This document shows positions 6,847 through 6,887 of a stretch of DNA of 64,000 bases, piece after piece. Source of the DNA: Escherichia coli (GTDB lineage Bacteria > Pseudomonadota > Gammaproteobacteria > Enterobacterales > Enterobacteriaceae); the NCBI RefSeq assembly GCF_003334765.1, contig NZ_QOWT01000001.1. One strand, written 5' to 3'. Numbering within the stretch: the stretch's first letter is position 1; each line of letters opens with the position of its first letter. Made by a program: the position numbers and the translations under genes. The notes under the pieces were generated by a model that was given only the letters and a program-made list of their open reading frames with translations, did not search any database and was not told the DNA's origin.

Positions 6847-6887
6847 TCCACGGACCGCACTCTTGACATAAGAGTGCGGTCCGTGGA
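6847..6887. other. Perfect 17-18 bp stem-loop (CCACGGACCGCACTCTT / AAGAGTGCGGTCCGTGG, 5-nt loop)
   Basis: Read directly; no adjacent U-tract on either strand, so not a classical terminator. Confidence 0.6.

Follow-up and report, generated by a model that had tools for sequence, protein, structure and literature searches.

Quasipalindromes are known to become 'perfect or more perfect' through template switching, a process established in Escherichia coli (PMC7202029), and proteobacterial genomes show preferential restoration of perfect inverted repeats, with template switching proposed as the process responsible (PMC5941160). A second well-described system is the insertion sequence ISEc11, an experimentally studied member of the IS1111 family whose 3' non-coding region (NCR) encodes a seekRNA that guides target choice, and whose ends carry subterminal inverted repeats (PMC11187229). 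Both systems bear on a perfect hairpin at positions 6847-6887 of a 64,000-nucleotide stretch of an E. coli chromosome, which was analysed as a whole and is referred to here as the window. We conclude, with a probability of about 0.68, that this hairpin is a palindromised piece of a dead transposase gene of the IS1111/IS110 family, that it most likely arose via template switching, and that it has no dedicated function.

The hairpin and the receptor pseudogene beside it

The hairpin consists of a left arm TCCACGGACCGCACTCTT (6847-6864), a loop GACAT (6865-6869) and a right arm AAGAGTGCGGTCCGTGGA (6870-6887), all given on the plus strand. An inverted-repeat search of the window returned arms of 18 nt each with 100% complementarity and a 5-nt loop, confirming the perfect 17-18 bp hairpin reported in a preliminary description of this DNA. 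As only ∼6e-6 perfect 18-nt inverted repeats with loops of 3-8 nt are expected by chance per 64 kb, the hairpin is not a chance occurrence. RNA folding of 76 nt around it (6830-6905) gives -43.7 kcal/mol for the plus strand and -38.5 kcal/mol for the minus strand, with z-scores near -8.9 and none of 200 shuffled sequences equalling the native stability. We note that in the RNA fold CUCUG (6838-6842) pairs with CGGAG (6891-6895), extending the large stem imperfectly.

No run of T/U residues is present 3' of the stem on either strand and a terminator scan makes no call at the hairpin, in keeping with the preliminary description, which had noted that there is no flanking U-tract and that the hairpin is not a typical terminator. 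A structured RNA, also suggested there, is not supported, as no Rfam family reaches its gathering score; in an Rfam 15 scan of 5500-9000 (E ≤ 1) the sole match is a spurious one to mir-5444, which scores 21.5 bits (E = 0.62) where the gathering score is 90. A search for further copies was equally without result. There is no second copy of the arm in the 64-kb window and none was found among plasmids, and by BLAST the arm is present as one copy, at one locus, per E. coli genome, the apparent second place being a self-match of the palindrome on the opposite strand. K-12 has the hairpin in identical form (W3110, ∼2,070,5xx).

To the right of the hairpin is cobU, which starts at 8313 and is followed by cobS, cobT and ldtA, and to its left is the end of a CP4-44-like island. 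Further to the left, two overlapping plus-strand open reading frames of 410 and 214 amino acids occupy 2263-4124, a pair that we take to resemble IbrA (PAPS-reductase-like) and IbrB (ParB-like). Between these and the hairpin is a yoeA-type pseudogene for a TonB-dependent (heme-type) receptor (4495-6641, minus strand), with a frame break near 5673-5700 and its ATG at 6641; the hairpin is indeed situated upstream of this pseudogene, as first described, at a distance of 206-246 nt from the minus-strand start codon. The receptor gene is a pseudogene in both the window and K-12, and is intact (715 aa, WP_000966628.1) in Ecol_AZ159, AZ 189 and BCE049; YoeA peptides have been reported in vesicles of UPEC 536 (PMC6598517). 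Relatives of the receptor with 70-77% identity, examples being a Proteus vulgaris locus and an annotated homologue in Providencia heimbachae, are the first genes of heme-uptake operons in which the receptor is followed by a periplasmic binding protein, a radical-SAM protein of the ChuW/HutW type, ChuX/HutX and other genes. Of these genes E. coli has only that for the receptor, with its Fur-box promoter.

The receptor promoter region (6642-6775, minus strand), with its Fur-box cluster (AATGAAAATAATTATCATT and neighbours), is common to heme-uptake loci of other Enterobacterales; in an upstream alignment the Fur box and the ∼135 bp preceding the start codon are common to four related loci, and the homology stops near 6775. 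Position -48 of yoeA is the strongest predicted Fur-site cluster in the E. coli genome and has been confirmed by gel shift (PMC2189734). Given the Fur cluster at -48, the end of upstream homology at ∼6775 and the location of the hairpin at -206 to -246, the hairpin is outside the conserved control region of the receptor gene, and no comparable inverted repeat is present in the four related (Morganellaceae-type) heme loci. A role as a regulatory element of the receptor was rejected, since the homology with these loci ends 70 bp or more short of the hairpin. The 67 nt between the promoter region and the insertion-sequence relic described below (6776-6842) have no significant similarity to the insertion sequence in either orientation. 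Within them is a small perfect hairpin, CTGAC-TCGT-GTCAG (6822-6835), flanked by a CTCTG..CTCTG direct repeat.

The insertion-sequence relic around the hairpin

By homology, the sequence from 6843 to ∼7290 is recognisable as a truncated and decayed relic of an ISEc11/ISEc66-like element, a member of the IS1111 group of the IS110 family, and not the unassigned AT-rich spacer for which it had been taken. A profile HMM built from seven intact ISEc11/ISEc66-like (IS1111-family) elements matches 6843-7274 with an E-value of 9.4e-65 (nhmmer) and a 10-nt gap inside the left arm, and tblastn places transposase residues 285-337 in frame with 6857-7015 at 49% identity over 53 amino acids. Sensitive blastn comparison of 6780-7460 with plasmids yielded 278 matches at 60-80% identity, many of them annotated 'IS110 family transposase'; 6866-7269 matches plasmid IS110-family elements at 69-73% identity, and the best plasmid match, from Pantoea, begins at 6866, within the hairpin. 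In annotated plasmid records the matched stretch corresponds to the last ∼150 nt of a 340-aa transposase gene together with ∼250 nt of non-coding sequence extending to the end of the element, and other relatives carry the annotations ISEc66 and ISEc11. No closer intact relative emerged from a peptide search, the plasmid matches all having at most 75% identity, and a scan of species-representative genomes with a pattern from the NCR gave 20 loci, none of them closer to the relic.

The transposase gene is represented by its C-terminal ∼60 codons (6843-7024, plus strand; nhmmer and tblastn), which contain in-frame stops and a 10-nt frameshifting deletion, and which end at the original stop codon, TAA at 7022-7024. 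From 6887 to this codon (138 nt) the relic is collinear with its relatives and ungapped at 55-62% identity, with one internal stop. The counterpart of the seekRNA-encoding 3' non-coding region of ISEc11 follows at 7025-7275 (plus strand) with ∼70-75% identity to intact elements; it can be aligned with the NCRs of the seven intact elements, for which there is a common consensus fold with 11 pairs showing compensatory changes, and the relic keeps most pairs of this covarying fold. An invariant hairpin, CAGTATCAG..CTGATAC, which spans the transposase stop codon (7002-7040), is also kept in the relic. Comparison with family ends places a decayed right end with its subterminal inverted repeat at 7276-7292 (plus strand), where GGTTATGTCTAG stands against the family sequence GCGTTCATACAG, which is recognisable in decayed form near 7280-7290.

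To the left of 6843 no significant similarity to the element was detected in either orientation in shuffle tests of 147 nt, and neither the DEDD/RuvC-like N-terminal catalytic domain nor a left end with a subterminal repeat was found there; with both of these missing the relic is truncated, and no active member is possible. Only 4 nt separate its left edge from the stem. Two further candidates were set aside because they were not significant in shuffle tests: a by-eye match of ACATATC.. to G-D-T-Y-L codons, and a derivation of the left flank from the right flank by inverted duplication.

Other mobile elements have left traces nearby. The translation of 7440-7850 resembles the N-terminal part of an IS66-family TnpC (..LLKMAR*QRFVKK.ESL.., ..VSEKMEYIPDWVVVTR..) with many stops, an assignment made from reading of the translation and from RefSeq annotation of neighbouring strains; an NCBIfam scan of stop-masked translations over 6880-7850 gave nothing useful. 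RefSeq annotation also indicates an IS4-family fragment at ∼7821-8009 and a fragment of a cobalamin-biosynthesis (cbi) gene just upstream of cobU. Judged by these resemblances, the sequence beside cobU from 6843 to 8300, previously described as a 1.6-kb stretch without assignment, is a stack of IS relics of the IS1111, IS66 and IS4 types. Several intact ISEc11/ISEc66-like plasmid elements directly adjoin IS66-family genes, as the relic does; no common IS66 target for ISEc11-like elements was evident, as the immediate flanks cannot be aligned between loci. At the left end of the window (121-576) there are, in addition, the C-terminal 151 amino acids of a different IS110-family transposase (..LKGVGQLIAITLVAELGDFSRF..), which runs off the window and has only a remote relationship to the relic (nhmmer, E = 0.023).

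Origin of the perfect stem

Fourteen intact relatives were examined, seven plasmid-borne and seven chromosomal, from E. coli, Salmonella, Pantoea, E. fergusonii, Photorhabdus, Xenorhabdus and betaproteobacteria; the seven chromosomal copies (Photorhabdus, Xenorhabdus and betaproteobacterial MAGs) came from the scan of species-representative genomes. The right arm of the hairpin corresponds to the family's K-E-P-G-P-W-(I) codons (AAAGAACCTGGTCCGTGGA) and is collinear with the relatives, and the loop corresponds to T-K codons, with a family consensus of GACCA/GACTA. The outer 8 nt of the left arm (ATCCACGGA) correspond to I-H-G-(A) codons; the inner 10 nt can be matched to A-A-L-L codons once a 10-nt deletion is allowed for. 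In the intact elements the F-I-H-G codons TTATCCACGG and the P-W-I codons CCGTGGATAA are reverse complements by accident of protein sequence, and all 14 relatives have an outer stem of ∼10 bp, in some cases including G-U pairs, that encloses an interior of 36-37 nt with little pairing, the segment from F to E being 63 nt long in every one of them. In the seven chromosomal copies, where the length was measured, no perfect inverted repeat in this segment exceeds 4-5 nt, and the seven plasmid-borne copies fold only into the ∼10-bp outer stem with G-U pairs. The perfect stem is a derived state, absent from all 14 intact relatives.

The relic is without 10 interior nucleotides (GCAAGGGCGG in most relatives). 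When these are removed from the relatives, 9-10 of 18 positions form Watson-Crick pairs, as against 18 of 18 in the relic. Relative to STEC299, eight single changes in the relic each repair a mismatch or a G.T, none breaks a pair, and one pair is altered on both sides, from T-A to C-G; in such comparisons the nearest intact elements are 25-45% diverged and the reconstructed ancestral arms are proxies. A crude neutral model of undirected substitution gives P ∼5e-10 for the observed pairing outcome, and low divergence does not account for the perfection of the stem, the coding remnant next to it being no more than 55-62% identical. Clustered changes that all raise complementarity have the appearance of quasipalindrome 'correction', and the sequence comparison points to template switching as the probable cause.

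The derived bases are found in both arms. Four consecutive right-arm bases, GTGC, replace the family ACCT/ACCA, and the left-arm GCAC that faces them still resembles the family GCAT/GCAG; left-arm changes at 6856, 6862 and 6863, for their part, face unaltered right-arm bases. Sequence appears to have been transferred between the arms in both directions. Because both arms carry derived bases a single template switch would be insufficient, and at least two events, or some other concerted process, would be needed. No intermediate allele of the stem was found.

These comparisons suggest a history in which an ISEc11/ISEc66-like insertion sequence was formerly present at the locus, its 5' two-thirds having been lost and its 3' part having decayed. 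The F-I-H-G and P-W-I codons of the ancestor would have constituted a quasi-palindrome, at which the nascent strand may have folded back during replication and copied the opposite arm, probably in more than one event and in both directions. Loss of the 10 interior nucleotides and rewriting of the interior would then have produced the 18 bp of perfect pairing. Correction presumably took place after, or as part of, inactivation of the gene, and could occur because the coding sequence was by then released from selection; marks of decay are evident at the hairpin itself, where the 10-nt loss shifts the frame and an in-frame TAA (6868-6870) is located in the loop.

A second route to the same structure, which we consider improbable, is a break in the gene close to where the loop now is, followed by repair of the truncation junction, by fold-back or hairpin priming, in which the right arm was copied in inverted orientation to give a left arm made de novo; the palindrome would then be a deletion scar. 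With the IS homology reaching no further left than 6843, 4 nt outside the hairpin, the left arm could be a newly made inverted copy and not a set of corrected I-H-G codons; in the 147 nt beyond, moreover, neither upstream transposase codons nor reverse-complemented downstream sequence has a significant match. However, TGTA (6843-6846), which is outside the stem, aligns with the family TTTA before ATCCACGG, and the inner left arm agrees with the family consensus at six of its 10 positions. The right-arm GTGC departs from the family where the left arm keeps a family-like GCA, which suggests left-to-right flow too, and fold-back repair normally yields long inverted duplications rather than ones of 18 nt. 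Correction of a quasi-palindrome by template switching is the explanation that we prefer.

Variation among E. coli genomes and the question of function

The hairpin sequence was found in 2,752 of 5,426 complete E. coli genomes, about half being without it. The stem is perfect in ∼1,750-1,800 complete genomes that carry the hairpin whole, and 437 of the 2,752 have one mismatch; in both of the one-mismatch genomes sampled (AZ159 and AZ189) this is C6858T, an uncompensated change in the left arm. In roughly 500-550 genomes an IS3 copy is present in the left arm, after 6854, with hairpin positions 8-41 kept. The classical IS3 copy ends ...GGATCA directly before CCGCAC, 7-8 nt into the left arm, and some genomes of this class show a further deletion, to 6897. 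As no target-site duplication is visible, this represents an IS3-mediated rearrangement and not a simple insertion. We note that to the left of the IS3 these genomes have a different island, with a phosphotriesterase-related gene, ISL3 and others.

BCE049, in which the 715-aa receptor gene is intact, is without exactly 40 nt, comprising the whole hairpin, between two direct repeats ACGGA (6850-6854 and 6890-6894, plus strand), and this loss is a classical slippage product at a palindrome. Between the two main E. coli haplotypes the hairpin is conserved no better than its flanks. In a large class of genomes the match to the window starts at 7038 and continues to the right, with the end of an IS2-like element (..TGGAGATTCAGGGGGCCAGTCTA) abutting on the left; on their left side these genomes have an IS66 fragment and a set of sugar-kinase, amidotransferase, DMT and phosphotriesterase genes. 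The 7038 breakpoint coincides with the foot of the relic's conserved stop-codon hairpin.

It is quite unlikely that the hairpin has been exapted and is under selection, whether as a factor-dependent or partial transcription barrier, as an end that stabilises a small RNA, or as a protein-binding or cruciform site; as a barrier it would shield the Fur-regulated promoter of the receptor gene against transcription running in from the IS relics. Such a role would agree with the very stable structure on both strands, with the location just upstream of a strongly Fur-controlled promoter, with the perfection of the stem in the ∼1,750-1,800 genomes noted above, which represent most E. coli lineages having the hairpin, and with the retention of a G-U pair in the plus-strand RNA by the common mutation C6858T. 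Yet the U-tract and an Rfam family are both absent, and the hairpin is missing from the receptor loci of other species and from about half of E. coli genomes. Where it is present, C6858T is uncompensated in the two genomes sampled of the 437 with one mismatch, IS3 has broken up the stem in roughly 500 genomes, BCE049 has lost it cleanly beside an intact receptor gene, and conservation between the two haplotypes is no higher than that of the flanks.

The uncompensated C6858T, the interruption by IS3 and the BCE049 deletion leave no sign of selection on the stem, and the hairpin is dispensable in natural strains. The population data argue against a function, which the hairpin probably does not have, and nothing points to a role of its own. 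We consider it similarly doubtful that the perfect stem is actively maintained, either as a structure lacking a U-tract that is selected as an insulator of the strongest Fur-controlled promoter in E. coli or as the end of an unannotated transcript, or through continuing concerted evolution of the arms in neutral DNA; were concerted evolution to be at work, the locus would be a natural, datable record of template switching keeping an 18-bp palindrome perfect.

It is very improbable that a recombinase or transposase uses the palindrome as its recognition site, or that the palindrome marks where the CP4-44-like island ends: structural variants do break at or near the hairpin (IS3 at 6854/6855, the deletion to 6897 and the 40-nt deletion) and the hairpin is at the edge of the IS relic, but it is single-copy in every genome, with no partner site and no counterpart at the opposite boundary of the island. 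IS3 and the IS2-like element account, by their ends, for the breaks at 6854 and 7038, the family's own subterminal inverted repeats (ATGAACGC / GCGTTCAT) are elsewhere and have different sequences (also PMC11187229), and the segment is internal coding DNA in intact relatives. The breakpoints at this locus reflect IS activity, with no evidence of a site-specific recombination function. Of the three possibilities raised in the preliminary description, a recombination site, an element terminus and a structured RNA, none is supported in its specific form, and what remains is the association with a mobile element, the hairpin being inside an IS1111/IS110-family relic and 4 nt from its truncated left edge.

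The hairpin is a by-product of pseudogene decay and mutation bias, and is ordinary in kind; it requires no new biology, and a candidate 'mystery element' is removed. The IS1111-family relic that contains it is left unannotated by RefSeq in thousands of E. coli genomes, K-12 included, and retains a largely foldable guide-RNA region (7025-7292). The locus appears to be an unusually clean natural case in which a coding quasi-palindrome became a perfect palindrome once protein selection was lifted, and the later fates of such a palindrome, namely point mutation, slippage deletion between 5-nt repeats and IS insertion, are represented within one population. For genome scans it suggests that mutation bias alone can make perfect hairpins in decaying DNA, and that perfection is no evidence of function.

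Four known systems invite comparison. Extragenic palindromes such as REP/BIME are known targets of some IS elements, and the hairpin resembles them in being a palindrome outside intact genes, but it is single-copy per genome and has no related copies. Like a Rho-independent terminator it is a very stable GC-containing stem-loop between genes; it differs in having no U-tract and a stem much longer than is typical, in being upstream of the neighbouring promoter, and in corresponding to a coding segment in intact relatives. With ISEc11/ISEc66 the relic shares homology over the last ∼60 transposase codons and the whole 3' NCR, the covarying fold and a decayed right end, whereas it is truncated and contains stops and a frameshift, and no intact member examined has the perfect 18-bp stem. 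The template-switch mutations of quasipalindromes described by the Ripley model and by the thyA and lacZ QP reporters of E. coli likewise turn an imperfect repeat into a perfect one by clustered changes that raise complementarity, together with a change in length. In contrast to those reporter events, the present case is natural and historical and is deduced from comparison, and it involves far more positions, with ∼10 changes and a 10-nt loss, both arms apparently having served as donors.
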